Positions 6,955 to 58,436 of a DNA stretch of 64,000 bases are shown one piece after another. Every line of letters starts with the position of its first letter. Position 1 is the first letter of the stretch. The translations under genes were made by a program, and so were the position numbers. The notes under the pieces were generated by a model. The model saw nothing but the letters and a program-made list of their open reading frames with translations, did no database searches and was not told where the DNA came from. The stretch is from the NCBI GenBank assembly GCA_963720545.1, contig OY970399.1, positions 3,347,022 to 3,411,021 on the forward strand. The letters run 5' to 3'. Source of the stretch: an uncultured Acidobacteriota bacterium. GTDB lineage: Bacteria > Acidobacteriota > Vicinamibacteria > Fen-336.

Positions 6955-6972
6955 ACTGCGTCCGGACGCAGT
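6955..6972 (+). terminator. Terminator-like palindrome ACTGCGTCCGGACGCAGT 5 nt after the S10 peptidase stop (no T-tract)
   Basis: Perfect 18-nt palindrome seen directly; the lack of a U-tract makes intrinsic-terminator assignment tentative. Confidence 0.4.
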
Positions 6973-15683: not shown

Positions 15684-15722
15684 CAGCGCCGCGAGCGGGG
15701 CCAGCGCAAGCGCCAGGACCCC

Positions 15723-17194: not shown

Positions 17195-19288
17195 ATGCCT
17201 TCTCGCCGCCGGGCGCCGGTGCCCCCCGAAACCGCCGTCGAACCACGAGTTCCACCGGAACAGCCGCGCCTCGCGCCGGCCCTTGCCGACACGGTCTTCC
17301 AGATCACCAGCGACTACGAGCCCAAGGGCGACCAGCCGGCGGCCATCGAGGAGCTGGTGAAGGGCCTGGAGCGAAACGACAAGCACCAGTGCCTGCTGGG
17401 CGTCACCGGCAGCGGCAAGACCTTCACGGTCGCCTCGGTGCTGGCCCGCGTCAACCGGCCGGCGCTGGTGCTCGCGCACAACAAGACCCTGGCGGCGCAG
17501 CTCTACCAGGAGTTCAAGACCTTCTTCCCGAAGAACGCGGTCGAGTATTTCGTCTCCTACTACGACTACTACCAACCGGAGGCGTACGTGCCGCAGTCGG
17601 ACACGTACATCGACAAGGAATCCACGATCAACGAAGAAATCGACCGCATGCGACTGTCGGCCACGCGCAGCATCTTCGAGCGGCGCGACGTCGTCATCGT
17701 GGCGTCGGTGTCGTGCATCTACGGCCTCGGCTCGCCCGAGGCGTACTACGGCATGCTGTTGTTCCTGCGCCAGGGCGACTGGCTCGACCGGCGCGAGATC
17801 CTCGCCAAGCTGGTCGAGGCGCGCTACGACCGCAACGACTACGAGCTGAAGCGCGGCACCTTCCGCGTGCGCGGCGACGTGATCGAGATCGTGCCCGCCT
17901 ACGAAGAGGTCGGCATCCGCGTCGAGCTGTACGGCGACGAAATCGAGAAAATCAGCTCGTTCGACCCGCTCACCGGCAAGGCGCTCGACCGGCTGTCACA
18001 GGTGGCCATCTACCCGTCGAGCCACTACGTGACGCCCCGGCCGCGGCTGCAGGACGCCATCAAGCACATCGAGGAAGAGCTGATCGCCAACAAGGCGCGG
18101 CTCGAGCGCGACGGCCGGCTGCTGGAGGCCCAGCGCCTCTACCAGCGGACCATGTTCGACCTCGAGCTGCTGCGCGAGGTGGGGCACTGCCACGGCATCG
18201 AGAACTATTCGCGGCACCTTTCCGGGCGGAAGGAGGGCGAGCCGCCGCCGACGCTGCTCGACTACCTGCCGAAGGACGCGCTCATCATCGTGGACGAGAG
18301 CCACCAGAGCATCCCGCAGGTGCGCGGCATGTACCACGGCGACCGCGCGCGCAAGTCGACGCTCGTCGAATACGGCTTCCGGCTGCCGTCGGCGCTCGAC
18401 AACCGCCCGCTCAACTTCGAGGAGTTCGAGGCGCGGGTGGGGCAGTCGATCTACGTCTCGGCGACGCCGGGCGCCTACGAGCTGCAGAAGACGGCGGGCG
18501 TGGTGGTGGAGCAGGTCATCCGCCCCACCGGGCTCATGGACCCGCGCGTAGACGTGCGGCCGGTCACCGGGCAAGTGGACGACCTGCTCGCCGAGATCCG
18601 CCTGCGCGTGGCGCGCAACGAGCGCGTGCTGGTCACCACACTCACCAAGCGCATGGCCGAGGACCTCACCGAGTACTACCACGACCTCGGCGTGCGCGTG
18701 CGCTACCTGCACTCCGACATCGAAACGCTGGAGCGCGTGCAGATCCTGCGCGACCTGCGCAAGGGCGAGTTCGACGTGCTCGTGGGCATCAACCTGCTGC
18801 GCGAAGGGCTCGACCTGCCGGAGGTGTCGCTGGTCGCCATCCTCGACGCCGACAAGGAAGGCTTCCTGCGGTCGGGCGGCTCGCTCATCCAGACGATGGG
18901 CCGCGCCGCTCGCAACGTCGAGGGCATGGCCATCCTCTACGCCGACGTGATGACCGCTTCGATGAAGGCGGCCATGGAAGAAACCGCGCGCCGCCGCGTC
19001 ATCCAGGAGACGTACAACGCCGAGCACGGCATCACGCCGCAGTCGATCAAGAAGAGCATCAAGGACGTGCTGAACTCGGTGTTCGAGGCCGACTACGTCA
19101 CCGTGCCCGCGGACGACGACGGCAAGGACGACGACGACGCGTATCGCTCGATGGACGAGCTGGAGAAGGAAATCGCCCGAGTGGAGAAAGCAATGCGGGC
19201 TGCCGCCAAGGCCTTGGAGTACGAGAAAGCCGCCGAATTGCGCGACCGCATCCGCAGGCTGCGCACCACGGAAGTGGGCCTGCGCTAG
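17195..19288 (+). CDS. uvrB: Excinuclease ABC subunit B
   Basis: Helicase motifs ([13 protein letters not shown]), beta-hairpin region [14 protein letters not shown]-terminal UvrB/UvrC interaction domain. Start taken at ATG 17195 rather than track start 17147. Confidence 0.95.
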
Positions 19289-19373
19289 TCATCGACGGAT
19301 TGGCGGTCGTTCCCGTCCAATCCGTCGATTTCCGTTAGGCCGTTTCCCAGGCGCTTGCGTCAGCGTCCGTTCC
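19289..19373 (+). repeat. Repeat element copy 1: hairpin ATCGACGGATTGG-N13-CCAATCCGTCGAT (19291-19329) plus module CCCAGGCGCTTGCGTCAGCGTCCGTTCC (19346-19373)
   Basis: Perfect 13-bp inverted repeat starting 2 nt after the uvrB stop; the 28-nt module is identical to the reverse-strand copy at 36971-36998. Confidence 0.85.
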
Positions 19374-19634
19374 GATCTCCTGCTCCTGTGGCCGGCGAGT
19401 GGTCCTCCGCGCGGGACGTTCGGGCTCAGTGGAAAAATGTCCGCGCACTTCCCGCCAGTCGTCCGCTGCCACTGTGGCAATTGGTAACGCAACTGCGTCC
19501 GGACGCTGTTGGTTACCGAATGTAGCGCTCAAGGCGGAGCCCTGGGCAGCAGCACAAGCGTTCCGTCCTCGGGGAAACTTTTGCAGCAAACCGGGTTTGC
19601 CTGGGAGCAGTCTCTTCCTAGTAGGAGGTTCAAC

Positions 19635-31110: not shown

Positions 31111-31145
31111 GGCGGGAGTGTAGCGCTTGTTGGCCTCCCGGCCTT

Positions 31146-32030
31146 GTGGGACGATGCCCGGCGTTGACCAGCCCCGAAGAAGACCCTGCGCTGCGTGCCG
31201 CGTTCGCCCACTGCGAGCGGATCGCGCGCGCCCATTACGAGAACTTTCCCGTGGGGCTGTTCGTCCCCAGGGCGAGCCAGAAGTACGTGCACTCGCTCTA
31301 TGCCTTTGCCCGCACCGCCGACGATTTCGTGGACGAGCCCGAATACGCCGCGGTGCGCGCGGAAAAGCTCGCGGACTGGCAGCAGCGCCTCGACGCAACG
31401 TATGCGGGGCGGCCCGACGGCCCGATCTTCGTGGCGCTCGGCGAAACAGTGCGCAAGCTCGGCATCGACAAGCGCCTGCTCGACGACCTGCTCAGCGCCT
31501 TTCGCCAGGACACGGTGAAGAGCCGCTACGCCGACTGGGAAGAGCTGCGCGATTATTGCCGGCGCTCCGCCGACCCCGTAGGGCGCCTGGTGCTGCTGGT
31601 GTTCGGCTACCGCGACCCTTCTCTGGCGCGCAGCGCCGATGCGCTGTGCACGGCGTTGCAGCTTGCGAACCATTGGCAGGATCTCGGCATCGACCTCGCG
31701 CGCGACCGCATCTACGTGCCGCAACAGATCCTCGCGCGGCATGGCGTCGACGAAGCCGCGCTGCGTGCGCACCGTGCCGACGAACCGTTTCGCGCGCTGA
31801 TGCAGGAGCTCGTCGCCCGCACCCGCGAGCTGTTCACGATCGCGCGGCCGCTCTGCGACCGGGTCGGCCGCGACCTGCGCTTCGAGCTGCGGCTCACGTG
31901 GCTCGGCGGCTCGGGCATCCTCGACCGCATCGAAGTCGCCGGCTACGACGTGTTCAGGCGCCGGCCGCATCACAACCTGGCGGCGAAGCTGCGGCTCGCA
32001 TGGCACGCGTGGCGCTGGCGGGCGGCGTGA
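31146..32030 (+). CDS. hpnC: Hydroxysqualene synthase HpnC (squalene/phytoene synthase family)
   Basis: HYENFPVG motif and DxxxD-type isoprenoid synthase fold; start codon uncertain (GTG 31146 or TTG 31164). Confidence 0.75.
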   Translation: MGRCPALTSPEEDPALRAAFAHCERIARAHYENFPVGLFVPRASQKYVHSLYAFARTADDFVDEPEYAAVRAEKLADWQQRLDATYAGRPDGPIFVALGETVRKLGIDKRLLDDLLSAFRQDTVKSRYADWEELRDYCRRSADPVGRLVLLVFGYRDPSLARSADALCTALQLANHWQDLGIDLARDRIYVPQQILARHGVDEAALRAHRADEPFRALMQELVARTRELFTIARPLCDRVGRDLRFELRLTWLGGSGILDRIEVAGYDVFRRRPHHNLAAKLRLAWHAWRWRAA

Positions 32031-34331: not shown

Positions 34332-35968
34332 TGTTCCTCGCCGCCGCGGCCGCCGGCACGGCGCAGGGCGGCGACCGCGAGCAGGGCCGCTCGCTGGTGA
34401 TGAGCAAGGGCGGCATCGTCGCGAGCGAGCACCCGCTCGCGTCGCAGGCAGGTGCCGCGATCCTGGCGAACGGCGGCAACGCCATCGACGCGGCGGTCGC
34501 GGCGAACGCTGTGATGGGCCTGGTGGCGCCAATGAGCAACGGCATCGGCGGCGACCTGTTCGCGATCGTCTACGACGCGAAGACGAAGAAGACCTACGGC
34601 CTGAACGCGAGCGGCTGGGCGCCGAAGGGGCAGTCGCGCGATCGCCTCGCGGCGGCGGGCCACAAGGAAATGCCCGCGGACGGGATCGAGACGGTGACGG
34701 TGCCGGGCGCGGTGGACGGCTGGAGCAAGCTGCTGGCGCGCTTCGGCACGCAGCCGCTCGCCGCGGTGCTGGCGCCGGCGATCCGCATTGCCGACGACGG
34801 GTTCCCGGTGAGCGAGTGGGTGGCCGCGAACTGGCAAGGCCACGACAAGATCCTCAAAGGCAACGCCCTTGCGTTGTACGTGCCGGGTGGCAAGGTGCCA
34901 GGCGTCGGCGACGTGTTTCGCAACCCCGACCTCGCGAACTCGCTGCGCGCCATCGCGAAGGGCGGCCGCGATGCCTACTACAAGGGCGCCATCGCGCAGG
35001 CGATCGTCGCCGAGTCGCAGGCGCACCACGGCACCATGGACGCGGCCGACCTCGCCGAGTACGAGAGCGAGTGGGTGGAGCCGATCAGCACCACGTACCG
35101 CGGCTGGACCGTTTACGAGATTCCGCCGAACACGCAGGGCATTGCAGCTCTCGTGATGCTCAACATGATGGAAGGCATGCCGCTTGCGCAGTGGGGGCAC
35201 AACTCCGCGCGCACGCTGCACAACCTCATCGAAGCGAAGAAGCTCGCGTACGCCGACATGATCCGCTACGTCGGCGATCCGCGAATGGCGGCAGTGCCAT
35301 CCGCCGGGCTGCTTTCCAAGGAGTACGCGGCGGGCCGCGCCAGACTCATCGACCCGGCGAAGGCGGCGGCAGCCGCGACCGCCGGCAGCGTGCGCGTCGG
35401 CAACGACACGATCTACCTCGCCACCGTGGACGGCGCCGGCAACATGGTGTCGCTGATCCAGAGCAACTACGAGAGCTACGGCTTTGGCTCAGGTCTGGTG
35501 GCGGCCGGCACCGGCTTCTGCCTGCACAACCGCGGCGCCTTGTTCACGCTCGACGCGCACAGCCCGAACGTGATCGCACCGCGCAAGCGGCCGCTGCACA
35601 CCATCATTCCCGCGATGATGGAACGCGGCGAGGAGCGCATCGGCTTCGGCATCATGGGCGGCTACAACCAGGCACAGGCGCACGCGCAGTTCGTCTCGAA
35701 CATCGTCGACCATGGCATGAACATCCAGGCGGCGATGGAAGCGGCGCGCTTCAACAAGTCCACGTTCGATGGGCTCGACGTGCAGATCGAGGACCGCGTC
35801 GCGCCTGAAGCGAAGGCCGAGCTCACACGCCTCGGCCACCAGATCACGTGGCGCCACGGCTTCTCCTCGAACATGGGCGGCGGCCAGGCGGTGATGCGCA
35901 ACTACAAGACCGGCGTCAACTCCGGCGCCTCCGACCCCCGCAAAGACGGCGCCGCCATCCCCCAGTAA
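34271..35968 (+). CDS. ggt: Gamma-glutamyltransferase, secreted
   Basis: GGT family motifs and autoprocessing-site region (TIYLATVDGAGNMVS); start chosen at ATG 34271 to include an Arg-rich signal peptide, which puts 61 bp inside the hpnE 3' end; alternative start ATG 34331. Confidence 0.8.
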   Translation: MDMEPGSRIRTRSRSRALGVMFLAAAAAGTAQGGDREQGRSLVMSKGGIVASEHPLASQAGAAILANGGNAIDAAVAANAVMGLVAPMSNGIGGDLFAIVYDAKTKKTYGLNASGWAPKGQSRDRLAAAGHKEMPADGIETVTVPGAVDGWSKLLARFGTQPLAAVLAPAIRIADDGFPVSEWVAANWQGHDKILKGNALALYVPGGKVPGVGDVFRNPDLANSLRAIAKGGRDAYYKGAIAQAIVAESQAHHGTMDAADLAEYESEWVEPISTTYRGWTVYEIPPNTQGIAALVMLNMMEGMPLAQWGHNSARTLHNLIEAKKLAYADMIRYVGDPRMAAVPSAGLLSKEYAAGRARLIDPAKAAAAATAGSVRVGNDTIYLATVDGAGNMVSLIQSNYESYGFGSGLVAAGTGFCLHNRGALFTLDAHSPNVIAPRKRPLHTIIPAMMERGEERIGFGIMGGYNQAQAHAQFVSNIVDHGMNIQAAMEAARFNKSTFDGLDVQIEDRVAPEAKAELTRLGHQITWRHGFSSNMGGGQAVMRNYKTGVNSGASDPRKDGAAIPQ

Positions 35969-36084
35969 TCGACGGATTGGCTTGTCCGTCCCCGTCCAAT
36001 CCGTCGATTTCCTGCTTGAGGTGTCGCACGGTGCAGCGAAAGTTCCCTCGGTCGCAGCGCAAGCGTTGAGCTCCTCGGGAAAAC
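35968..36084 (+). repeat. Repeat element copy 2: hairpin (35968-36008) plus module GCAGCGCAAGCGTT...CTCCTCGGGAAAAC (36054-36084)
   Basis: Same 13-bp arms as copy 1; the first base is shared with the ggt stop codon; the second module matches 19562-19591. Confidence 0.85.
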
Positions 36085-36086
36085 GG

Positions 36087-36953
36087 TTAGTCGATGCGGG
36101 CGACTCCGGGGGCGGTGGCGGGGAAGCGGTCGAAGATTGCGGGGTCGTGGCCGGGAACGATCCGGCGCCGGTCCTCGACGAGCTTCCCCATCCGGCTCTG
36201 CGCTTCCAGGTTGGCGGCGGCATCGAAGGTCTCGCCGATCGCGAGGTGGTTTTCCAGATTCTCGTAGAGATACGCGTTGTCGGAAGCGATCAGGACCGGG
36301 CCGACACGCGTGCCGACGGTCGCGTACTGGGAGGCGAAGGTGTGCCGCCCGCCGGTGTACACGCGGATCCCCGGGATGATCTCCTTGTCGTCGCCGTCCA
36401 CGAGCGTCACGCGCCCCGCGGCGCTGAGCTTCGCGAGCATCGCGGCGTCCACGGCCGACATGTCGTCGTGCAGCGCTTCGCCCTTTGCGCCGACGTAGTA
36501 CTCGTACTCGGCGCGCTGGATCCAGATGTGCGCGTTCGGGAACAGGTCGGCGCCGTCGAGATGGTCCCAATGCACGTGCGAGACGATGATGTCGGTGACG
36601 GCCTCCGGCGCAATTCCCGCGGCCGCAACGGCGTCGGACGGCTTGCGATAGTCGGCGGGTTTCCACGCCTTCATGAACTCGTCGCGGTAGAAGCCGGCGT
36701 CCACCAGCACGTTGCGCTTCTCCGGACCCTTCAGCAGCCACACCATCATCGCGCCGTCGCTCTTGCGGCTCGGGTCGGCGCCCGCCACGAGCTCGGAGGT
36801 CGGGAACCCGAGCAGCATGCCGTAGCGAACCGCGTACACCTCGTAGACAGGCGGAGCCGCCGCCACGGGCTGGGCGGCGGGCCGCTGCGCTTTGCAGGCT
36901 GGGAGCAGGGCGAATGCTAGCGGCAAGGCGAACACGAGGGTGGTCTTGGGCAT
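36087..36953 (-). CDS. MBL-fold metallo-hydrolase lipoprotein
   Basis: Lipobox LLPAC; metallo-beta-lactamase motif HVHWDH; start taken at ATG 36953. Confidence 0.75.
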   Translation of the reverse strand: MPKTTLVFALPLAFALLPACKAQRPAAQPVAAAPPVYEVYAVRYGMLLGFPTSELVAGADPSRKSDGAMMVWLLKGPEKRNVLVDAGFYRDEFMKAWKPADYRKPSDAVAAAGIAPEAVTDIIVSHVHWDHLDGADLFPNAHIWIQRAEYEYYVGAKGEALHDDMSAVDAAMLAKLSAAGRVTLVDGDDKEIIPGIRVYTGGRHTFASQYATVGTRVGPVLIASDNAYLYENLENHLAIGETFDAAANLEAQSRMGKLVEDRRRIVPGHDPAIFDRFPATAPGVARID

Positions 36954-36970
36954 GCGGGAGTTTAGACAAA

Positions 36971-37056
36971 GGAACGGACGCTGACGCAAGCGCCTGGGGG
37001 GACGACAAGAACGGCAATCGACGGATTGGACGGGGACGGAGAGCCAATCCGTCGAT
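36971..37056 (-). repeat. Repeat element copy 3 (reverse orientation): hairpin 37017-37056 plus 28-nt module 36971-36998
   Basis: Hairpin ends 6 nt after the def stop on the minus strand; the module is the exact reverse complement of 19346-19373. Confidence 0.85.
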
Positions 37057-37061
37057 GACAG

Positions 37062-41676: not shown

Positions 41677-42336
41677 GTGCTACGCTCGGAGGAGGCTCCT
41701 GAAATGGCCGTCCTGCCGCCGATCATTCCCCTGTTCCCCCTGGGAGAGGTGGTCCTCTTCCCGAAGGTGGCGCTGCCACTGCACATCTTCGAGCCGCGTT
41801 ACCGGAAGATGACCGCCGACGCCCTCGCCGGCGAGCGCATCATCGGCATGACGCTGCTGCAGGCGGGCTTCGAGGCGAGCTACGTCGGCCGCCCGCCGGT
41901 TTTTCCGCTCGGCTGCGCCGGCCACATCGAAGAGACCGAGGCCCTGCCCGACGGCCGCTACAACATGCTGCTGCGCGGCGTGTCGCGCTTTCGCATCGTC
42001 GAGGAGCGCCACGGGCAGCCCTACCGGCTGGCGGCGATCGAAGAAGTGGAAGACGGCCGCTACGATGCCGCGCGCGTGGGTGCGATGCGCGACAAGATCC
42101 TGAACGCGGTGTCGGCGGCGTCGCCGCGGCCAACGCTGCTGGTGGTGCAGCCCGACGTGAGCGACGAGCTGTTCCTCAACACGCTGTGCCAGATGCTGCC
42201 GTTCGATGTGGTGGAAAAGCTCTCGCTCCTCGAATGCGACAGCCTCGGCCAGCGTTGCGACCGGCTCCTGGAACTCCTCGAGTACAAACGACTCACCGGC
42301 AACCTCGCCTCGGGCCGGGTCGAACGGCCTAACTAG
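41677..42336 (+). CDS. Lon N-terminal (substrate-binding) domain protein
   Basis: LON-N type N-terminus (IPLFPLGEVVLFPKVALPLHIFEPRY); no AAA+ or protease domain; start may be ATG 41704. Confidence 0.7.
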   Translation: MLRSEEAPEMAVLPPIIPLFPLGEVVLFPKVALPLHIFEPRYRKMTADALAGERIIGMTLLQAGFEASYVGRPPVFPLGCAGHIEETEALPDGRYNMLLRGVSRFRIVEERHGQPYRLAAIEEVEDGRYDAARVGAMRDKILNAVSAASPRPTLLVVQPDVSDELFLNTLCQMLPFDVVEKLSLLECDSLGQRCDRLLELLEYKRLTGNLASGRVERPN

Positions 42337-42378
42337 TCATCGGCGGATGGGCTTGCCGTTCACGACCCATCCGCCGAT
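42337..42378 (+). repeat. Repeat element copy 4, variant hairpin ATCGGCGGATGGG-N14-CCCATCCGCCGAT
   Basis: Starts 3 nt after the Lon-N gene stop; differs from the main type at paired positions on both arms. Confidence 0.8.
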
Positions 42379-42429
42379 TACGACTTTCGGCGCGGGTGCC
42401 TCGTCTAACGACAGGAGAGTGGAGGTCAA

Positions 42430-47603: not shown

Positions 47604-47627
47604 CGCGGGAATATAATCCTTCGCGGG

Positions 47628-49868: not shown

Positions 49869-50581
49869 TCAACCTCTCGGTCAATGGCCGCCGTCGCGCC
49901 TTCTCGGGGCCGCCGTGGAAGCGCCTCCTCGACGTGCTGCGCGAAGACTTCGCGCTGACGGGCACCAAGGAGGGCTGCGGCGAAGGCGAGTGCGGTGCCT
50001 GCACCGTGCTCATAGACGGCGCCCCGGTGAACAGCTGCCTGATCCCCGCCTGCCAGGTCGCCGGCCAGCGCGTCGAGACGATCGAAAGCCTTGGCCGCCC
50101 CGCGGCGCTGAGCGTCTTGCAAGAACGCTTCCTCGCGATGGGCGGCGCGCAGTGCGGCATCTGCACCCCGGGCATGCTGATGGCCGCCTGGGCCCACGTC
50201 AAAGCCGGCGGCTCCGCTTCCCCCGACGCTGTTCGCGAGCAACTGGCCGGCAACCTCTGCCGCTGCACCGGCTATCAGGCGATTGTGGATGCTGTTATTG
50301 AGACGATTCGTCTTGAGACGATTCGAAAATCGCTAAAGCGAATCGTCTCAATTCCGGGCCAGAGGTCCGTTGCCGCTCCCAGGAAGAAGTCCGTCCGTCC
50401 TCCCAGGAAGAAATCCGTTCGTTCTCCCAAGAAGAGAGCGGCGCCGCTTTCCAGGAAAAGGACCGTCGCGTCCGCCACAAAGAAATCAGCAGCGCCTGAC
50501 AAACGGAAATCTCGTCCTCGGAGGAAGTCCGTTGTCAGGTCAGCTATGTCTCCGAAGACGAGAAGCGTGAAGACGAGATAA
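49865..50581 (+). CDS. Xanthine dehydrogenase family [2Fe-2S] small subunit with Lys/Arg/Ser-rich C-terminal repeat tail
   Basis: GTG start overlapping the large-subunit stop; two 2Fe-2S motifs (CGEGECGACTV and CGICTPG...CRCTGY); ~75 extra C-terminal residues PRKKSVRPPRKKSVRSPKKRAAP.... Confidence 0.8.
   Translation: MINLSVNGRRRAFSGPPWKRLLDVLREDFALTGTKEGCGEGECGACTVLIDGAPVNSCLIPACQVAGQRVETIESLGRPAALSVLQERFLAMGGAQCGICTPGMLMAAWAHVKAGGSASPDAVREQLAGNLCRCTGYQAIVDAVIETIRLETIRKSLKRIVSIPGQRSVAAPRKKSVRPPRKKSVRSPKKRAAPLSRKRTVASATKKSAAPDKRKSRPRRKSVVRSAMSPKTRSVKTR
50298..50475 (+). repeat. Lower-GC repeat block inside the small-subunit 3' region: TTGAGACGATTCG direct and inverted copies (50298-50351) and ~24-bp tandem repeats (50377-50475)
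   Basis: Perfect 13-bp inverted repeat 50313-50325 / 50339-50351, an extra direct copy at 50298-50310, then degenerate CTCCCAGGAAGAAGTCCGTCCGTC-type tandem units. Confidence 0.8.
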
Positions 50582-50582
50582 C

Positions 50583-51449
50583 GTGCGCGGTAATCCTCTT
50601 CGCATCACCGTGTCGCGGCCAGCCACAGCGGAGCAGGCGATTGCCGCGTACGCCGCGCGGCCTGACTCGCTGCCGTTTGCCGGCGGCACCGACCTGATGG
50701 TCGCCTGGAACGCCGGCGACTGGCACGACCGCGAAGTCCTCGACCTGTCGGCGCTCGACGAGTGGCGCAGCATCGCTGCGGCGGCGGGGGAATTGCGCAT
50801 CGGCGCCCTGGCCACGCACACGAGCCTGCGCCGCCACGAAGCGGTCGCCCGCCACGCGCCGCTGCTGGCGTCGGCCTGCGCCACCATCGGCGGCATCCAG
50901 ATCCAGAACCGCGGCACGCTCGGCGGCAACATCGCCAATGCCTCGCCGGCGGGCGACACGTTTCCGCCGCTCGCTATCTACGACGCCGTGGTCCACATCG
51001 CCGCAGCGCGCGGCGCGCGGCAGGTACCGTTCGCCGCGGTGTTCAGCGGCGTGAAGAAGACCGTGCTCGAACCGGGCGAGCTGATCGACGCGATCACGAT
51101 CCCGATCCCGGCGGCGCCGCCCGACCGGGTGATGTTCCGCAAGGTCGGCACGCGCGCCGCGCAGGCGATCTCCAAGGTGGTCGCGGCCGGCGCCTTGTGG
51201 TTCACGGCCGACGGCACCGTGGCCGACGTCCGCTTTGCCCTCGGCAGCGTGGCGCCGACGGTGAAGCGCGCCGCCGCGGTCGAGAAATTCCTCAAGAACC
51301 GCTGGCTCACCAGGAACGTGGTGCGCGAGGCGTGCCTCAAGCTCGAAGCCGACATCAAGCCCATCGACGACATCAGGTCCACCGCGGAGTATCGAATAAA
51401 CGTTGCCAGGGCGCTGCTGTCGTCCTTCCTCGGCCAGGACCCCCGTTGA
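50583..51449 (+). CDS. Xanthine dehydrogenase family FAD-binding subunit (CoxM/XdhB-like)
   Basis: 288 aa; FAD-binding molybdopterin-dehydrogenase pattern (AGGTDL, GTLGGNIANASP). Confidence 0.8.
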   Translation: MRGNPLRITVSRPATAEQAIAAYAARPDSLPFAGGTDLMVAWNAGDWHDREVLDLSALDEWRSIAAAAGELRIGALATHTSLRRHEAVARHAPLLASACATIGGIQIQNRGTLGGNIANASPAGDTFPPLAIYDAVVHIAAARGARQVPFAAVFSGVKKTVLEPGELIDAITIPIPAAPPDRVMFRKVGTRAAQAISKVVAAGALWFTADGTVADVRFALGSVAPTVKRAAAVEKFLKNRWLTRNVVREACLKLEADIKPIDDIRSTAEYRINVARALLSSFLGQDPR

Positions 51450-52771
51450 AAACGAAACGGCCGGAGAAACAAGCGCGGGCGTCGTTCACCCCGGTGCTGG
51501 CCACGCTGCGCCGCGCCAACAGCGTGCTGGCGAAGCGCTATCCGGGCGATCCCGACGGCCGCCAGCCGGTGCACACCGTCTACGGCGGCGCGCACCTCTT
51601 CAAGGCCGATACCGCACCGCGCCTGGGCGCGCTCGCCCTGCGCGCGCTCGACCAGCACGCGCCCGACCCGATCTCGTTCGCCGGCGCGCTGCAGTTGCAG
51701 GTGCCCGACGGCCTCGACCCGTTCCGTCACGCCACCGAGATCTACGAGCGCGTCACGGCCAAGCTGCGACGTGAGCCGGTGGAAGACTTCCGCATCGACT
51801 TCGAGGACGGCTACGGCAACCGCCCCGACGCCGAGGAGGACGGGCACGCCGTGTCCGCGGCCCGCGCCGTGGCGGAGGGTGCCCGGGCGGGCACGCTGCC
51901 GCCGTTCATCGGCATCCGCATCAAGACGCTCTCGAACGAACTCGCCGCGCGCAGCCTGCGCACTCTCGAGGTCTTCGTCGCCACGCTGGTAGAGGCGACC
52001 GGCGGCCGGCTGCCGCCGGGCTTCGTCGTCACCCTGCCGAAGATCATGGTGCCCGGACAGGTGCGGGCGCTGGCGCGGGCGCTTGCCGCGCTCGAGAAGG
52101 CGCACGGCCTCGCCGACCACTCGCTGCGCTTCGAGCTGATGGTGGAGACCACGCCCTCGATCTTCGACCACGAGGGACGCCTGGCGCTGCCGGCCCTGAT
52201 CGCGCTCGGCGACTCGCGCATCACCGCGGCGCACTTCGGCACTTACGACTACACCGCGTCGTGCAATATCACCGCCGCACACCAGTCGATGACGCATCCG
52301 GCCTGCGACTTCGCCAAGCAGGTGATGCAGGTGGCGCTCGCCGGCACCGGCATCACGCTCTCGGACGGCGCCACCAACGTGATGCCGGTCGGCGAGCGCG
52401 AGACCGTGCACCACGCCTGGCACCTGCACTTCCAGCAGGCGCGCCATTCGCTGATGCAGGGCTTCTACCAGGGGTGGGACCTGCACCCGGCACAGCTCGC
52501 GAGCCGCTATGCCGCGGTCTACTCGTTCTTCCTCGAGGGCCTCGGGCCGGCCTCCGAACGGCTGCGCAACTTCGTGGACAAGGCGGCGCAGGCAACGCTC
52601 GTCGGCGACATCTTCGACGACGCCGCCACCGGCCAGGGCCTGCTCAACTACTTTCTGCGCGCCCTCAACTGCGGCGCCATCGACGAGGCCCAGGCGCTCG
52701 CCACCGGCCTCACCCGCGACGAGCTGCGCACCCGCTCGTTCGTGCGGATCATGAAGGCGCGGCGCGCGTAG
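51446..52771 (+). CDS. Malate synthase / CitE-like (HpcH-HpaI) superfamily protein, putative
   Basis: TTG start overlapping the upstream stop; DFEDGYG acidic motif and TIM-barrel-like pattern; family assignment tentative. Confidence 0.45.
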   Translation: MKTKRPEKQARASFTPVLATLRRANSVLAKRYPGDPDGRQPVHTVYGGAHLFKADTAPRLGALALRALDQHAPDPISFAGALQLQVPDGLDPFRHATEIYERVTAKLRREPVEDFRIDFEDGYGNRPDAEEDGHAVSAARAVAEGARAGTLPPFIGIRIKTLSNELAARSLRTLEVFVATLVEATGGRLPPGFVVTLPKIMVPGQVRALARALAALEKAHGLADHSLRFELMVETTPSIFDHEGRLALPALIALGDSRITAAHFGTYDYTASCNITAAHQSMTHPACDFAKQVMQVALAGTGITLSDGATNVMPVGERETVHHAWHLHFQQARHSLMQGFYQGWDLHPAQLASRYAAVYSFFLEGLGPASERLRNFVDKAAQATLVGDIFDDAATGQGLLNYFLRALNCGAIDEAQALATGLTRDELRTRSFVRIMKARRA

Positions 52772-53572
52772 TCAGCGCCTGCGGATCCACCAGGCCGCGC
52801 CCCAGCCGACCAGGACCATCGCACCGAGCACCGCGAGCGGGTGGCCGCTGCCGTAGGCGATTGTCGGGAAGTGGCTGCCGACCATGGTGAAGAGCACCGG
52901 CAGCACGATAAAGGTGTTGTGCCTGGAGCGGCTCCTGGCGGTGGCCGCGAGCAGCGGATCGGGAGCCTGGCCGGCGCGGATGGCGCGCACCATCTGCTTC
53001 TGGCCGGGGATGATGCGGTCGGTGACGTTCGTCGCCATGATGGTGCCGAGCAGCGCGCCCACGTGGATGTAGGCGGCGCGCGGGCTCATCACCTGCAGCA
53101 GCCACCACGCGGCCGCCAGCAACAGGAGGTACGAGAGGACGATCGCGGCTGTCTCGAAGCGGCCCATGGCGCGCGCCCAGAGCTGGTCGTACACCATCCG
53201 GCCGACGAACACGGTGAGGATCCCCTGGAACACGGCGCGCCCGACGCTCGCTTCGGGGTCGGCCACCATCAGCCCGCCGGTCCAGTACACCATCAGCAGC
53301 AGCGCGACGCCCGAGGACCAGGTAAAAATCGCCTCCCACTGGAACCAGTGCAGGGTCTTCGGCAGCGGCGCCAGTGTCGCACGCTTCTCGACCACGTAGA
53401 AGCCGCCGCTGTGCACCATGAACACCTGGTTGCCGGGGTTTTCCTCGGCGTCGGCGAACGCGCGCTCGAGGAACGTGAAGAGCCAGGTCTGGCCGATCCA
53501 GAGAATCGCCGCGAACACGTGCGACCAGCGCAGCGCGAGGTGCAGCCATTCGCTCCAGTCGCTCCACTGCAT
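52772..53572 (-). CDS. Integral membrane protein resembling the membrane domain of PuuD-type urate hydroxylase (tentative)
   Basis: 266 aa, ~6 TM helices with conserved His/Trp-rich segments, no CxxCH heme motif; assignment leans on its position in the purine catabolism cluster. Confidence 0.5.
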   Translation of the reverse strand: MQWSDWSEWLHLALRWSHVFAAILWIGQTWLFTFLERAFADAEENPGNQVFMVHSGGFYVVEKRATLAPLPKTLHWFQWEAIFTWSSGVALLLMVYWTGGLMVADPEASVGRAVFQGILTVFVGRMVYDQLWARAMGRFETAAIVLSYLLLLAAAWWLLQVMSPRAAYIHVGALLGTIMATNVTDRIIPGQKQMVRAIRAGQAPDPLLAATARSRSRHNTFIVLPVLFTMVGSHFPTIAYGSGHPLAVLGAMVLVGWGAAWWIRRR

Positions 53573-53576
53573 GGGC

Positions 53577-53921
53577 TTACGTCCCCTTGTAGGTGCTGTA
53601 GCCGAACGGGCTCAATAGCAGGGGCACGTGGCTGTGCGCTGTGGCGTCGTCCACGTCGAATACCACGATCGCGTACGGGAAGAACGAGCGGCTGCCTTTC
53701 TCCGACTGGTACACGCCCACCTCGAAGGTGAGCCGGTAGCGGCCGGTGGTGAAGTCGGAGCCGCCCCAAAGGCCGCGCGCCCGGCCGTCGGCATCGGTGT
53801 GGCCGCGGCCGACGACCACCCAGTCGCCGCCGACTTCCTTCTCGAGGAGCACCGGCACGCCGGCCGCCGGCCGGCCGCGCGCCGTGTCGAGCACATGGGT
53901 CGTGATGCCACCACCGTTCAT
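53577..53921 (-). CDS. 5-hydroxyisourate hydrolase (transthyretin-like)
   Basis: 114 aa; transthyretin-fold motifs (ITTHVLDTARGRPAAGV); C-terminal YKGT in place of the usual YRGS. Confidence 0.75.
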   Translation of the reverse strand: MNGGGITTHVLDTARGRPAAGVPVLLEKEVGGDWVVVGRGHTDADGRARGLWGGSDFTTGRYRLTFEVGVYQSEKGSRSFFPYAIVVFDVDDATAHSHVPLLLSPFGYSTYKGT

Positions 53922-54431
53922 CTAGGGAACCTCCGCGAGCCACTTGTCGAGCCGCAATGCAGTGATCTTCTCCTGTTCGCTCGCCGCTTTCCTGAGCTCG
54001 GCCGCGGGCGAGGCGCGCAGCCGCTCGCGCAGGTCCTCGAGCATGTCCGCGGCGCTCCGGCCGGTGGCACAGACGATGAAGATGTGGCCGAACTGCCGCT
54101 CGTACTCCAGGTTGCCGGCCATCAGCGCCACGAGCGTCTTTTCGTCAGCGCCAGCCGCGGCGTGCTGCTCGCCCTGCGACCAGGTGGCGGCGAAGCGCTC
54201 GCGCATCGCCTCGAGGTCGCCGATGCGCGGATGTTGCGCGAACGCCTCGAGCCAGTCCTCGCGGTCGAGCGCGCGCCATGCCGTGCGTGCCGCCTCGTGG
54301 AGCGCTGCCGCGCTTGCGAACGGCCGGCCCAGGAGCATGGCGTCAACCCAGCGGCTCGAGCCGCAGCAGCGGCTGAAGCCGGCCGCGGCATCGGCCTCAG
54401 GAAGGCCGTTAACGGCGGCGAGTCCGCCCAT
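53922..54431 (-). CDS. OHCU decarboxylase (2-oxo-4-hydroxy-4-carboxy-5-ureidoimidazoline decarboxylase)
   Basis: 169 aa; motifs HPRIG and FGHIFIVCATG. Confidence 0.8.
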   Translation of the reverse strand: MGGLAAVNGLPEADAAAGFSRCCGSSRWVDAMLLGRPFASAAALHEAARTAWRALDREDWLEAFAQHPRIGDLEAMRERFAATWSQGEQHAAAGADEKTLVALMAGNLEYERQFGHIFIVCATGRSAADMLEDLRERLRASPAAELRKAASEQEKITALRLDKWLAEVP

Positions 54432-55401
54432 GGATCCGCAACCTGCTGATGCCGCCGTCCGGGAAGATGCGCAGGCGCACGTGGGTGAATGGCCCCGCGG
54501 CGCGCAGCATCGCCGCGCCGAAATAGTGCCGCGTGTTCGCCTTCAGCGGGCTGCGCTGCAGCACGTCCTGCCACGGCCCGCCGTCCACATCGGCGGCCAC
54601 CGCGTCGGCTTCGCCCAGGTGCGCCGCCTGCAGCGACGCGCTCTCCGGGAAGTTGCCCTTGAAGTGGTTGGTGTCGATCTCGATGCGCTCCAGCACGCCG
54701 GCGTTGCCGAGTTTGACGATCACCCAGTCATAGCCCGGCCCGCGGCGCCGCCGCGTCTCCCACCCCTCGCCCATGTTGGGCGCGCGGCCCGGCAGGATCA
54801 GGTTCGACTTGAGGCCGAAGTGTTCGTCGCTCGCGAGCAGCACGCGGCCGCCGTGTTCCAGCGCCGCGAGGTCCACGAGCTTGCCCGCGAGCGCCGGCCA
54901 GTCGACGCTGACCTCGCCGTGGACCCGCAGGCGCGCGACGCCGCCGTCCGGAAAGATGTTGAGCCGCACGTGCGTCACCGGCGGGCGCAGCGGCACTTCC
55001 ACGGGGTTCGACGCGCCGGGCGACAGCAGCCACGGATCGACGACCTGCACCCAGGCGGCGTGCGCCAGCTTGTCCTTGGTGGCCGTGCCCTTCAGGTCGC
55101 AGACGTCGATCGAGGCGCGCTCCGGCTGGTTGCCGATGAAGTAGTTGGTGTCCACGTCGATGCCGCGCAGCACGCCGCGCAGCCCCAGCTCGACGATGCA
55201 CCAGTCGTGGCCCGGGGTGCGGCGCCGGCGCGTCTCCCAGCCGTCCATCCACTTGCCGCGCTGGGTGAACTTGTCGGCGATGAAGACGCCGCGGCCGGGG
55301 CGCAGGAGGTTGTGGCGCGAGGCGAAGAACTCGTCGTTCGCCAGCAGGGCGCGCCCGCCGACGCGTGCGGCGGCGAGGTCCGGATAGTCAGCGAAGTCCA
55401 T
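54409..55401 (-). CDS. Allantoicase
   Basis: 330 aa from ATG 55401; two repeated allantoicase domains (GWETRRRR..., IFPDGG...RLR twice). Confidence 0.85.
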   Translation of the reverse strand: MDFADYPDLAAARVGGRALLANDEFFASRHNLLRPGRGVFIADKFTQRGKWMDGWETRRRRTPGHDWCIVELGLRGVLRGIDVDTNYFIGNQPERASIDVCDLKGTATKDKLAHAAWVQVVDPWLLSPGASNPVEVPLRPPVTHVRLNIFPDGGVARLRVHGEVSVDWPALAGKLVDLAALEHGGRVLLASDEHFGLKSNLILPGRAPNMGEGWETRRRRGPGYDWVIVKLGNAGVLERIEIDTNHFKGNFPESASLQAAHLGEADAVAADVDGGPWQDVLQRSPLKANTRHYFGAAMLRAAGPFTHVRLRIFPDGGISRLRIHGRTRRR

Positions 55402-56749
55402 GTCGTCGTCGCTCCAGCAGCTCACCGCGGGGCGCGACATCTGCGAGGACGCCCTCGCCGAACACGCGCGTGCCCCGCACGAACGTCGCCACCACGCGGC
55501 CGCGCAAGGTGCGTCCAAGGTAGGGGGTCAGCGCGTGGCGGTGGCGAATCATATCCTGCGCCACGACCACGCTTCCATCGGGGTCGAAGGCCACCACGTC
55601 GGCGTCGAGGCCTGCCGCCAGCCGGCCCTTGCGGTGGTCGAGCCCGGCGAGCCGCGCCGGAGCCGCGGCCATCAGGCGGCTGAGGTCGGGAAATCCAAGG
55701 CCGCGGGCCTCGGCCCCGGTCCAGGTCGCGCTGAGCGCGAACTGCAGCGAGGCGATGCCGCCCCACGCCTGCATGAAGTCCCCGGCCTCGCGTGCCTTCA
55801 GCGCCGGCACGCACGGCGAATGGTCCGAGACGACCATGTCGATGGTGCCGTCGGCGAGCGCCGCCCACAGCCGTTCGCGGTTCGCGCGCTCGCGGATCGG
55901 TGGCGCGCACTTGAACTCGGTGGCGCCGTCTGCGATGCCTTCCGCGTCGAAGGTGAGGTAGTGCGGACAGGTCTCGACGCTGATCGGCACCGAGCGCGCA
56001 CGCGCCGCCCGGAGCGGAGCGAGCGCTTCGTCCGACGAGAGGTGCACCACGTGCACCGGCGCGCGCAATTCCTCGGCGAGACCGATGAGCCTGGCGATCG
56101 CCGCGTTTTCCCAGGCCTTGGGGCGGCTCGCGAGAAAGGTCGAGTAGGCCGCGGGGCCCGAGGTTGCGGCATGCGGCGCACCCAGGTCTTCCTCGGCGTG
56201 GGCGAGCAGGGGAATGCCGCGCGGGCCCAGCACAGCGAGCGCCTGCCGCAGGTCGGCTTCGGCGCTGCACGGGAAGTCGTCGATCCCCGAGTGCACGAGG
56301 AACGCCTTGAAGCCGCACGCGCCGGCATCGATCATCGCCGCGAGTTCAGAGGCGTTGCCGGGAACGATGCCGCCCCAGAAGGCCGTGTCCACATGGCAGC
56401 GGCCGGCCGCCGCGGCGCGCTTCTCGGCGAGCGCGGCGAGGGTGGTGGTCACCGGGATGCTGTTGAGCGGCATGTCCACGATGGTGGTGATGCCGCCGGC
56501 GGCAGCCGCCGCGGTCGCGGTGGCGAAGCCTTCCCATTCGCTGCGGCCCGGCTCGTTGACGTGCACGTGCGAGTCCACGATCCCCGGCATCAGCACCAGC
56601 GGATCGAAGTCCTCGACCGCGTAGCCCGCGGGGACCTCGTGAGGCGCCGTCACGGCGTCGATACGGCCGTCGCGGATCAGGATGGCGCCGGGGTTGCAGC
56701 CGGCGCCCGTCAGGACGCGGCCGCTGCGCAGGGCCGTGCCCGCCACCAT
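55388..56749 (-). CDS. Allantoinase (cyclic amidohydrolase family)
   Basis: 454 aa from ATG 56749; metal-binding HVHVNEPGR, carboxylated-Lys region FKAF, SDHSP motif. Confidence 0.8.
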   Translation of the reverse strand: MVAGTALRSGRVLTGAGCNPGAILIRDGRIDAVTAPHEVPAGYAVEDFDPLVLMPGIVDSHVHVNEPGRSEWEGFATATAAAAAGGITTIVDMPLNSIPVTTTLAALAEKRAAAAGRCHVDTAFWGGIVPGNASELAAMIDAGACGFKAFLVHSGIDDFPCSAEADLRQALAVLGPRGIPLLAHAEEDLGAPHAATSGPAAYSTFLASRPKAWENAAIARLIGLAEELRAPVHVVHLSSDEALAPLRAARARSVPISVETCPHYLTFDAEGIADGATEFKCAPPIRERANRERLWAALADGTIDMVVSDHSPCVPALKAREAGDFMQAWGGIASLQFALSATWTGAEARGLGFPDLSRLMAAAPARLAGLDHRKGRLAAGLDADVVAFDPDGSVVVAQDMIRHRHALTPYLGRTLRGRVVATFVRGTRVFGEGVLADVAPRGELLERRRHGLR

Positions 56750-57204
56750 CAGTACGTCTGCTTGCCGGGCAGCGCCTGCCAGTCGCTGAGCAGCTTGCGG
56801 CAGGCGCCGCGGGCGACGCCCTTCACGATCTTCACCTTGCTGCGTCCGAGCCGCTTCAGCGTGGTGTTGGAAATCGTCAGCTCGTTGAAGCCGAGGCGCT
56901 TGACGTCGGGCACCGAGGTGCCGAAGTAGATCCTGTCCACCTGGGCCCAATGGATCGCGGCGAAGCACATCGGGCAGGGCTCGGTGGTCGAGTACAGCTC
57001 GCAGCCGGCGAGCAGGTGCGTGCCCAACGCCTTCGTGGCAATGCCGATGGCTTCGATCTCGGCGTGCCTCGTGGGGTTGCCGGTGCGCAGCACGCGGTTG
57101 TGCGCCACCGCGACGATGCGGTTGCCCTTGACGATGACAGCGCCGAACGGGCCGCCGTCGCCGCGCTTGATGCCGGCCAGGGCGTTGTCGACGGCGAGCT
57201 GCAT
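56749..57204 (-). CDS. CMP/dCMP-type zinc deaminase (guanine deaminase-like)
   Basis: 151 aa from ATG 57204; zinc motifs HAEIEAI and PCPMC; the N-terminal 53 aa of the track ORF are rejected. Confidence 0.7.
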   Translation of the reverse strand: MQLAVDNALAGIKRGDGGPFGAVIVKGNRIVAVAHNRVLRTGNPTRHAEIEAIGIATKALGTHLLAGCELYSTTEPCPMCFAAIHWAQVDRIYFGTSVPDVKRLGFNELTISNTTLKRLGRSKVKIVKGVARGACRKLLSDWQALPGKQTY

Positions 57205-57257
57205 CAACCGGTTCCTGGTGAGGGTGTCGGGCACGAGCCATTGTACGCTTCGTCGCG

Positions 57258-57728
57258 ATGGCCCCTCCCGCGATTCGCGACGCGACCGCCGCCGACCAGG
57301 AGTTCGTGATCGCGACCGCGGCGCGCCTCGCCGAATTCGGCCCGCCCGAATCGCGCCCGGCAACCGAACTGGTGGCGGGCGAAGTGCGGACGCTGCGCCA
57401 GTGGTTCAAGGCGCCACCTGCGGGCACGCGCGTCATCGTCGCGGAGTCGGCCCAGGGCGAGCGCCTCGGCTTCGCCTATCTCGAGCCCGTGGTCGAATAC
57501 TTCCTCCGCGAGGAACACGGCCACCTTGGCATGATCGCGACCGCCGCCGGCGCCGAAGGCCGGGGCGTCGGCTCGGCGCTGCTCCGGGCCGCCGAAGACT
57601 GGTGCCGCGCGCAGGGCTATCGCCGGCTCACCCTCAACGTGTTCGCGAACAACAGCGCCGCGCGCGCCGTCTACGACCGCAAGGGCTACGTGCCGGAGAC
57701 GATCCACTACGTCAAGCTGCTCCGCTAG
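57258..57728 (+). CDS. GNAT family N-acetyltransferase
   Basis: 156 aa; acetyl-CoA binding motif region (RGVGSALLRAAEDWCRAQG). Confidence 0.7.
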   Translation: MAPPAIRDATAADQEFVIATAARLAEFGPPESRPATELVAGEVRTLRQWFKAPPAGTRVIVAESAQGERLGFAYLEPVVEYFLREEHGHLGMIATAAGAEGRGVGSALLRAAEDWCRAQGYRRLTLNVFANNSAARAVYDRKGYVPETIHYVKLLR

Positions 57729-57732
57729 TCGT

Positions 57733-57821
57733 CATCGGCGGATGGGCCGCCTCGCCGACCATCCGCCGATTTCCGTTCGTCCATTCTTTCGTTCCCAGGC
57801 GCTTGCGTCCGGGTCCGTTCC
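57733..57821 (+). repeat. Repeat element copy 5: variant hairpin (57734-57770) plus module CCCAGGCGCTTGCGTCCGGGTCCGTTCC (57794-57821)
   Basis: Starts 6 nt after the GNAT gene stop; same stem variant as copy 4. Confidence 0.85.
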
Positions 57822-57928
57822 GGTGGCCGTTTCCTGACGGTCACTTGCGGCGCGCAGGACCACTCGCCGGCCGCTATCGAGCTACGGCGCTCAGACACAG
57901 TAGCAGAGATCCGGACGGTACGGCCGAT

Positions 57929-57999
57929 GACGCAAGCGCCTGGGGAACGGACTAACGGAAATCGACGGATTGGACGCGAACGATCGCCAATCCGTCGAT
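57929..57999 (-). repeat. Repeat element copy 6 (reverse orientation): hairpin 57961-57999 plus module core GACGCAAGCGCCTGGGG (57929-57945)
   Basis: Main-type 13-bp arms; inverted relative to copy 5 about 190 bp away. Confidence 0.85.
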
Positions 58000-58016
58000 G
58001 ACTGGCGGTGTAGAAC

Positions 58017-58388
58017 ATGGACATGAACCTCGCGCAACACGTCCTGCTGAAGAGCTTCGAGAGCCCCGACGAGGTACGCCGCTTCGAAAGAGGCCGGTTC
58101 GAGACGGTGCGGATCGGCGCGCTCACGATCGGCCGCGCCACCTACGAGCCCGGCTGGAAATGGTCCACGCACGTCGGCGCCCTCACCGGCCAGACTGCCT
58201 GCACCGTCGAGCACGTCGGCCTGGTGGTGAGCGGCGCCGCGGTCGCGGCGTTCGCCGATGGCTCGGTCGCGGAGCTGCGGCCCGGCGTGGTCTTCCACAT
58301 CCCCGCGCATCCCCACGACAGCTGGGTGATCGGCGACGCACCCTACGTGTCCCTGCACTTCGTGGGCGCCGACCACTACGCCAAGTAG
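58017..58388 (+). CDS. Cupin domain protein
   Basis: 123 aa, small beta-barrel pattern with conserved His (HIPAHPHDSWVIG). Confidence 0.6.
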   Translation: MDMNLAQHVLLKSFESPDEVRRFERGRFETVRIGALTIGRATYEPGWKWSTHVGALTGQTACTVEHVGLVVSGAAVAAFADGSVAELRPGVVFHIPAHPHDSWVIGDAPYVSLHFVGADHYAK

Positions 58389-58436
58389 ACTTCGCCGCGA
58401 ATCGCGAATGAGGCGACGACGCGAAAGCGAGGCAGC

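Follow-up and report, generated by a model that had tools for sequence, protein, structure and literature searches.

Small extragenic repeats of the REP (repetitive extragenic palindromic), BIME (bacterial interspersed mosaic element) and MITE (miniature inverted-repeat transposable element) types are well known chiefly from Proteobacteria and a few Firmicutes. Pneumococcal BOX elements (boxA-boxB-boxC), the Correia/NEMIS elements of Neisseria and enterobacterial ERIC sequences are non-coding, intergenic and modular, with variable modules; they are cotranscribed with adjacent genes and can influence termination or the stability of the mRNA. Correia elements, like classical MITEs, are bounded by defined terminal inverted repeats and a TA duplication. 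Here, we describe a 64-kb stretch of contig OY970399.1 from an uncultured Acidobacteriota bacterium (the window, to which all positions refer unless another locus is named), in which the spacer between a GNAT acetyltransferase gene and a cupin-family gene holds two inverted copies, copies 5 and 6, of a small hairpin repeat. An earlier reading, made from the sequence alone (the sequence-only reading), had proposed either that the interval was a MITE or that two half-elements faced each other. We conclude, with a probability of roughly 70%, that the interval consists of two independently acquired members of one family standing tail to tail, a BIME-type cluster and not a unit MITE.

The REPs and BIMEs of Enterobacteria and Pseudomonas are mobilized by RAYT (REP-associated tyrosine transposase, or TnpA-REP). 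REPs are defined as palindromes of 21 to 65 nt with a fully paired basal stem of 7 to 20 nt and a GT[AG]G motif 0 to 2 nt 5′ of the foot, and a BIME is called where two inverted REPs lie ≤150 nt apart (PMC6006769). Functionally, REPs stabilize mRNA, terminate transcription and affect translation (PMC6006769). In the REPIN concept of Bertels and Rainey, in which REP doublets form hairpins (PMC3337134), both arms come from the same REP group, with no hybrids seen, and doublets are better conserved than singlets (PMC3337134).

The family described here resembles REPs and BIMEs in being an imperfect palindrome, short and extragenic, whose stem carries a conserved short motif at its 5′ foot, in having several subtypes per genome and in occurring as single, tandem and inverted copies in mosaics with other motifs. 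Like them, it lies just downstream of genes, and its single units are without terminal inverted repeats or target duplications. Its hairpins (37 to 41 nt, with a 13-bp stem, all of them extragenic) fall within the REP size and stem ranges. It differs in its host, an uncultured soil lineage that was judged probably Gemmatimonadota-like, in its loop of 13 to 15 nt, in an oriented, nonpalindromic tail (modules T, A, P and G, see below) of up to ~110 nt, and in that no RAYT (Y1 transposase) is found in the sequence we could read, namely, the window plus ~55 kb of related loci. The two hairpins of the pair are 190 nt apart, which is beyond the 150-nt limit of a BIME call. With BOX, Correia/NEMIS and ERIC repeats, the family has in common that it is noncoding, intergenic and assembled from modules that are variably present. 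Unlike Correia elements and MITEs, the solo units have neither terminal inverted repeats nor a TA duplication, and no similarity to families of the BOX, Correia or ERIC type was found in Rfam, which holds several of them. The IS200/IS605-derived PATEs (palindrome-associated transposable elements) have subterminal hairpin recognition, no inverted ends and no target duplication, and insert beside a short specific sequence. The constant (T/C)AG that marks the left junction of our units would agree with insertion of this kind, but the short forms have no evident right-end hairpin, no TnpA/TnpB gene was found in the sequence read, and the element boundaries are drawn from sequence only.

Two inverted copies in the GNAT-cupin spacer

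A unit of the family begins with the pentanucleotide (T/C)AGTC, directly followed by the hairpin (H). In full copies, TTTCCGTT and CCGTTCC boxes (T) come next, then an invariant core, CCCAGGCGCTTGCGTC (A), and the sequence runs on to ...GTCCGTTCC; long forms have two more parts, another small palindrome (P) and a module of 47 nt (G). The spacer and its borders read as follows.

57726..57728 (+): TAG stop codon of the GNAT gene (gene 57258-57728; open reading frame [ORF] list, Pfam Acetyltransf_1)
57729..57822 (+): copy 5, short form, H-T-A (nhmmer E = 1.1e-18, repeat pairs, core matches)
Parts of copy 5: TCGTC, 57729-57733; hairpin H of the GGCGGATGGG subtype, 57734-57770; TTTCCGTT/CCGTTCC-type module, 57771-57793; core CCCAGGCGCTTGCGTC, 57794-57809; tail ...GTCCGTTCCG, to 57822
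57823..57849: junction of ~27 nt belonging to neither copy (residue after the copy alignments)
57850..58004 (−): copy 6, long form, H-T-A-P′-G′ (92 nt at 91% identity to copy 1)
Parts of copy 6: CAGTC, 58004-58000; hairpin H of the GACGGATTGG subtype, 57999-57961; TTTCCGTTAGTCCGTTC, 57960-57945; core, 57944-57929; tail, 57928-57916; remnant of module P (GGATCTCTGCTACTGT), ~57912-57897; 24-nt insert, 57896-57873; 23 nt of module G (GGCCGGCGAGTGGTCCTGCGCGC), 57872-57850
58017..58388 (+): cupin-family gene (ORF list; homologues are named cupin and carry PF07883)

That the copies form an inverted pair, as the sequence-only reading had it, is confirmed by three collinear inverted repeat pairs recovered in a repeat search of 57400-58400: 57731-57747/57986-58002 (17 nt, 88%), 57752-57786/57945-57979 (35 nt, 80%) and 57794-57822/57916-57944 (29 nt, 83%). 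The copies lie tail to tail with their hairpins outermost, the hairpin of copy 5 pairing 57734-57750 with 57754-57770 (88%) and that of copy 6 pairing 57961-57973 with 57987-57999 (13 nt, 100%). The spacing of ~190 bp given previously is correct as the distance from hairpin to hairpin (57771-57960) but not for the whole arms, which are 93 nt apart, and the limits then given for the copies (57733-57821 and 57929-57999) are refined to 57729-57822 (+) and 57916-58004 (−). As DNA, copy 5 folds at −16.4 kcal/mol (z = −4.1). A local hairpin, GTGGCCGT-TTCC-TGACGGTCAC, occupies the junction between the copies (57823-57849; RNA fold, −15.3 kcal/mol, z = −2.9). The first ATG of the cupin gene follows 12 nt after the hairpin end of copy 6.

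The two arms appear to have independent origins. Copies were compared by global identity, with full units and hairpins scored separately. No two full copies in the window are less alike than copies 5 and 6 (74.5%), whereas copies 1 and 6 are 89.8% identical. The hairpins give the same picture: that of copy 6 is 97.4% identical to that of L7a, the copy next to exbD in a related genome, and 95% identical to that of copy 1, and that of copy 5 is 82.9% identical to that of copy 4, but copies 5 and 6 share only 73%. The arms are of different hairpin subtypes (GGCGGATGGG in copy 5, GACGGATTGG in copy 6), and copy 5 has a TTCTTTCGTT-type insertion in common with L7b, a copy in another genome. Thus, of the two original proposals, that of two elements facing each other is supported: the arms belong to a dispersed family, and each is closer to other copies than to its partner. 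A recent inverted duplication in situ was considered and rejected, as the arms differ by 25%.

The sequence between the arms leads to the same conclusion. Its match, on the other strand, to DNA downstream of copy 1 is genuine (57850-57872 against 19390-19412, 1 mismatch): this 23-mer has 2 matches where 0.02 are expected, a number reached in 0/100 shuffles, and the similarity continues over 30 nt in all (87%). When the 3′ extensions are included, 131/159 aligned nucleotides of copies 1 and 6 are identical. Beyond the 92-nt unit, both run through ...CCGTTCC and GATCT(C)CTGCT(A/C)CTGT and then GGCCGGCGAGTGGTCCT(C/G)CGCGC, with a 24-nt insertion between the last two blocks in copy 6 only. Copy 6 is therefore a long form spanning 57850-58004. 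On this alignment, what had been taken for the internal segment of a MITE appears to be almost entirely the oriented 3′ extension of copy 6, with ~27 nt left over. The module order H-T-(A)-P-G recurs at the exbD locus of a relative (L025).

At all other sites, the family occurs as solo units, as hairpins only or, in L007/L023, as tandem direct units. The chance that two of six insertions share one spacer is 0.23 to 0.41 (30 to 60 spacers assumed). Two units in one spacer are thus unsurprising, and clustering is a habit of the family, as the tandem pair in L023 illustrates.

The pair as a possible single mobile unit

If the interval were a single nonautonomous DNA transposon (MITE), copies 5 and 6 would be its terminal inverted repeats and 57823-57915 its interior, and the 276-nt block would have moved whole. 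The inverted arms of ~90 nt (74.5 to 83% identity) are what such an element would have, the block is intact in a strain 99.5% identical, and its outer right boundary coincides with a break in homology to L002. The whole interval can also be folded into one long hairpin on either strand (z = −7.3), as any inverted repeat would be. We nevertheless regard a MITE as highly improbable. Its supposed arms are the most divergent full copies in the window, of different subtypes, each closer to solo copies elsewhere; its interior is the oriented extension of one arm; and inverted arms are found in the pair alone, the solo members of the family being without terminal inverted repeats. No target-site duplication is present: the sequences flanking 57729-58004 (left, ...CGCTAG, ...CTCCGCTAG; right, TGGCGGTG..., TGGCGGTGTAG) share no direct repeat, and the GTC/GAC at the ends of the composite is part of the palindrome itself. 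Further full-length copies, which a MITE would lead one to expect, did not appear, there being no second composite in the window, in the 26 fetched loci or in the genome, metagenome, viral contig, plasmid and phage collections searched. Nor did a candidate enzyme: the ~48 window ORFs, all of them housekeeping genes, and the gene tables of L023, L025 and L026 contain no transposase domain, and no transposase with matching ends was seen among those window ORFs.

A REPIN-type doublet, in which the inverted pair would be the replicating unit mobilized by a RAYT and the solo copies its decayed remnants, has an equally slim chance of being correct. Two inverted hairpin units able to form one long hairpin are indeed its hallmark, and the family is extragenic and built on a hairpin whose foot carries a conserved 5′ motif. 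However, that motif differs from GT[AG]G, the two arms represent different subtypes, and the spacer is not symmetric and hairpin forming as in REPINs but an oriented extension of one arm. The order of conservation is also the reverse of that of REPINs, with copy 1, copy 6 and L7a best conserved (90 to 97%) and the arms of the doublet, compared with each other, least (74.5%). The inverted doublet is the exception in the family, being found at only 1/7 sites, and neither the window ORFs nor the genes listed for the related loci showed a RAYT.

A family of modular hairpin repeats

With a profile search (nhmmer), exactly six copies of the family are found in the window (E values, 2e-27 to 5e-8), and the hairpin arm ATCGACGGATTGG has 12 matches (≤2 mismatches) where 1.56 are expected, a count attained in 0/100 shuffles; the family is therefore not a product of chance. 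All six copies (6/6) are extragenic. Four are full copies (copy 1, 19286-19375 [+]; copy 3, 36969-37061 [−]; and copies 5 and 6, with the limits given above) and two consist of the hairpin only (copies 2 and 4). The copies outside the GNAT-cupin spacer are as follows.

19286..19436 (+): copy 1, long form, H-T-A-P′-G; begins within the TAG stop codon of uvrB (Pfam UvrB)
35966..36012 (+): copy 2, hairpin only; overlaps the TAA stop codon of the gamma-glutamyltranspeptidase gene (ggt)
36969..37061 (−): copy 3, short full form (28-nt repeat match at 100%)
42334..42381 (+): copy 4, hairpin only, GGCGGATGGG subtype; begins in the TAG stop codon of a LON-substrate-binding-domain gene

Copy 3 fills the spacer from the stop codon of the peptide deformylase gene (def) to the ATG of a metallo-beta-lactamase (MBL)-fold gene. 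Module G of copy 1 (19390-19436) is identical to its counterpart in L025 at 47/47 positions.

The arms of the hairpin read ATCGACGGATTGG...CCAATCCGTCGAT or, in a doubly compensated variant, ATCGGCGGATGGG...CCCATCCGCCGAT. In an alignment of 8 copies, 99% of the stem cells are paired and two pairs show double compensatory changes, whereas sliding the partner columns as a control left only 17 to 51% paired. The hairpin of the family is thus under structural constraint. CTGTC, TCGTC and TCATC occur in the same alignment as variants of the 5′ motif, directly 5′ of ATCG.... The hairpins fold at −14 to −18.5 kcal/mol as DNA (z = −4 to −7) and at −24 to −27.5 kcal/mol as RNA, and the stem-loop is followed by UUUCCGUU.

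Rfam gave 0 matches at the gathering threshold over the whole window and, at permissive thresholds around copies 1, 5 and 6, only subthreshold noise (≤16.5 bits). The hairpin family had no match in the plasmid, phage or viral contig collections. A strict pattern for the full element had 0 matches in a set of genomes from 185,579 species, and the hairpin pattern picked out four stretches there, of which only L007 is real; the other three (L005, L006 and L008) were rejected as unrelated hairpins in other taxa. In the JGI metagenomes, the hairpin pattern had 0 matches, and four 20-mer matches without a hairpin were dismissed as chance. Within the collections searched, the family was therefore met only in the genome of the window and a few close relatives, and nothing comparable was found for this uncultured soil lineage in Rfam or in the papers, plasmids and phages searched. 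On our best reading, the family is a new, previously undescribed modular repeat within the broad class of small extragenic hairpin repeats, and we place it in no named family.

Position relative to stop codons

At 6/7 independent sites, the hairpin end of the unit lies 0 to 5 nt past the stop codon of a co-oriented gene: uvrB (copy 1), ggt (copy 2), def (copy 3), the LON-substrate-binding-domain gene (copy 4), the GNAT gene (copy 5) and exbD (L7a). Copy 6, whose hairpin end faces the start of the cupin gene, is the exception. The distance from the first base of the stop codon to the first paired base is 5, 2, 8, 5, 8 and 5 nt, respectively, so that all six offsets equal 2 modulo 3, for which the chance is ~0.004 if the sites are independent. 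The six sites in this common register are at the following positions.

Window: 19286, 35966, 37064, 42334 and 57726
L007: 4005

The common register arises because the (T/C)AG of the element either is the stop codon (copy 1, copy 4 and L7a) or directly follows the native one (as CTG in copy 3 and TCG in copy 5). Only where it acts as the stop codon does the element have an intact TAG triplet. None of the six adjacent genes ends in TGA, the commonest stop codon in the window, compared with 20/42 window ORFs (Fisher p = 0.03). GNAT orthologues that lack an element end at the same codon or one next to it. This placement may reflect target choice, a stop codon borne by the element or selection.

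We tentatively raise, as a rather doubtful extension, the idea of a mobile hairpin anchored to stop codons, which would target TAG or TAA stops or bring its own in-frame TAG within (T/C)AGTC and so place a stem-loop 2 to 5 nt past the stop. Read-through of the stop codon into the element was considered separately and rejected: the frame after uvrB and the GNAT gene is long and rich in R, P and S, and is conserved no further than the nucleotide repeat.

The spacers in related genomes

Two of the related loci, L007 and L023, are parts of CAVXLQ010000012.1 from the metagenome-assembled genome (MAG) MFD04935.bin.1.24, and L018 is a Logan contig. L018 matches the window at 99.5% identity and contains the composite too, with four substitutions. 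In L001 (99.9% identical), the contig ends inside copy 6. L002 is 93.4% identical over 5.4 kb, and its homology to the window starts at 58005, exactly at the outer end of copy 6. Upstream of this break, the L002 contig, which ends 65 nt upstream of the cupin gene, carries another repeat module, F2, over 46 nt; F2 is related to the window sequence at 15695-15745. By sequence comparison, copy 6 appears to be absent from L002, but the site is occupied by F2. At this junction, CAGTC lies within variable DNA and not in conserved flank. The GNAT orthologues in L013, L019 and L020 (66 to 72% identity) have no element and are followed by unrelated short spacers.

Related family copies were found at an unrelated locus, exbD-YCII, in L007/L023, L025 and L026, and copy 6 is 97 to 98% identical to the copies in L007/L023 and L025. 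The exbD-YCII spacer of L023 has two tandem direct H units and module B (see below), whereas that of L025/L026 has one H unit with P, P, G and F2. In L025/L026, exbD is followed by H, T, a decayed stretch, the palindromes ACTGCGTCCGGACGCAGT and ACTGTGTCCGGACACAGT, and a 47-nt module identical to window 19390-19436 at 47/47 positions. Spacers of the exbD-YCII and GNAT types are mosaics with fast turnover, in which whole modules differ between close relatives.

MAG MFD04935.bin.1.24 is probably the same lineage as the window or a very close one, judging from protein identity. The best named homologues of the cupin and GNAT proteins are from Gemmatimonadaceae MAGs (~75% identity), and the window encodes LpxD, indicating a diderm host. 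The MAG is titled Actinomycetota, a label that looks doubtful given that the locus encodes ExbB, ExbD and TonB. The YCII protein of L007 is identical to one on a contig that also carries the cupin and GNAT proteins of the window. DNA polymerase I is in three fragments in L023 (2900-5110) and in L025 and is a single 888-aa gene in L026 (2971-5637); frameshift-type assembly errors in the L023 and L025 MAG contigs are likely. Several short-read contigs end in or next to the repeat modules (L001 at position 1, L002 at position 1 and L024 at position 1925).

Proposed manner of spread and role in RNA

By analogy with the processing of single strands by REP/RAYT or IS200/IS605-like systems, the hairpin and its 5′ pentanucleotide could serve as a recognition module for copying in trans. 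Such copying would explain why solo copies have no terminal inverted repeats and no target duplications. An inserted unit would be transcribed as the 3′ end of the upstream mRNA, where its stem-loop could terminate transcription, protect the transcript or affect termination of translation; a role at the 3′ end would explain why copies survive almost only just past stop codons and in the orientation of the gene. Escherichia coli REPs ≤~15 nt from a stop codon reportedly stall ribosomes, as Liang, Rudd and Deutscher are said to have described in 2015. An intrinsic terminator would have a GC-rich stem-loop directly before a U tract at the 3′ end of a gene; here, strong stems 0 to 5 nt past the stops are followed by TTTCCGTT, which is only partly T rich.

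Several observations weigh against two units copied in trans. The copying mechanism is purely inferred, and neither the ~48 window ORFs nor the genes tabulated for L023, L025 and L026 revealed a transposase or HUH/Y1 domain. The 5′ motif is (T/C)AGTC and not the GT[AG]G of REPs, and a consensus scan of 57600-58100 flagged no terminator. L002 is not a clean empty site, having F2 where copy 6 sits in the window, and the more distant L013, L019 and L020 have different downstream genes. Finally, the only genome in the GTDB species set with the family shows a single matching stretch; copy number across the genome may thus be low, and the density in the window is not to be extrapolated.

A sigma-70 promoter consensus scan of 57600-58100 also found none. 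TTGCGT-N17-TCTAAA, which lies in module A of copy 3 ahead of the MBL-fold gene, was considered as a promoter and set aside, the match being weak and not reproduced in the other copies.

The units might instead be nonmobile regulatory signals of the host (terminators or binding sites for protein or RNA) kept alike by selection and gene conversion, the pair representing back-to-back signals for the GNAT and cupin genes. The strict placement after stops in the orientation of the upstream gene and the compensatory changes that keep the stem are consistent with this, as are the alternative modules (B, F2 and inverted H-T-A) that take equivalent positions in orthologous spacers, of which F2 at 15695-15745 is a canonical terminator with a stem and T8. 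Against it, 90 to 98% identity extends over 60 to 90 nt, unpaired loop and tail included, across unrelated loci and genomes, far beyond what a terminator needs. Moreover, copy 6 faces away from any gene end, presence and absence differ between close relatives, and copies are nested or in tandem in L023. We therefore consider host signals quite unlikely and prefer two independently acquired units of a probably mobile family.

Companion modules and other features of the window

Module B accompanies the hairpin family at several loci.

36044..36088 (+): module B (TCCCTCGGTCGCAGCGCAAGCGTTGAGCTCCTCGGGGAAACG); abuts the stop codon of the convergent MBL-fold gene; 95.6% identical to L007 4212-4256

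This module (nhmmer E = 1.9e-14) has a further copy at 19540-19584 and also occurs at L023 10410-10454 and L024 1856-1900. It co-occurs with H, is unstructured (z about +1) and holds the position taken by F2 in relatives. We did not adopt the view that B is a decayed inverted H-T-A, since B is unstructured and the two share only an 18-nt similarity around CGCAAGCG (uncorrected p ~0.02 to 0.05).

F2 (GGCCAGCGCAAGCGC...CCCTCAGG.CTT.GG) is found at 15695-15745 in the window, where it lies between convergent genes, at L002 1-46 and at L025 10410-10445. Its core, CGCAAGCGCC, is shared with the reverse complement of the invariant core of the hairpin family. A second family of small palindromes (ACTGCGTCCGGACGCAGT) is present at 6955-6972 and 19492-19509 in the window and at L025 10705-10752: one copy directly follows the stop codon of an S10 peptidase gene, one is in the spacer downstream of uvrB and two are in tandem in the exbD spacer of relatives.

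Elsewhere in the window, a cluster for purine/urate catabolism at 46400-57400 (xanthine dehydrogenase subunits, urate oxidase, HIU hydrolase, allantoicase, an amidohydrolase and a deaminase) is syntenic with L013 and L020, and the synteny ends exactly at the GNAT stop codon. The 2Fe-2S small subunit of the xanthine-dehydrogenase-like cluster (49868-50581, +) has a C-terminal tail (~90 aa) in which Lys, Arg and Ser abound and PRKKSVR-type repeats occur; the tail is encoded in a stretch of lower GC content with an AT-rich hairpin, GAGACGATTCG...CGAATCGTCTC (~50297-50345). A lone ORF at 30559-31491 (−) has two BMC (microcompartment shell) domains; its neighbors are two squalene/phytoene-synthase genes and an amine-oxidase gene (hopanoid hpnCDE-like), with no other microcompartment genes in view.

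Significance

The result is a modest one, a cluster of two repeat units and not a new kind of mobile element. In practical terms, these repeats break short-read assemblies at the spacers they occupy, and those spacers diverge fast between close strains. The placement just past stop codons is the one feature of the family of wider interest; a mobile hairpin anchored there, if real, would couple a selfish repeat to translation termination or to the formation of mRNA 3′ ends.

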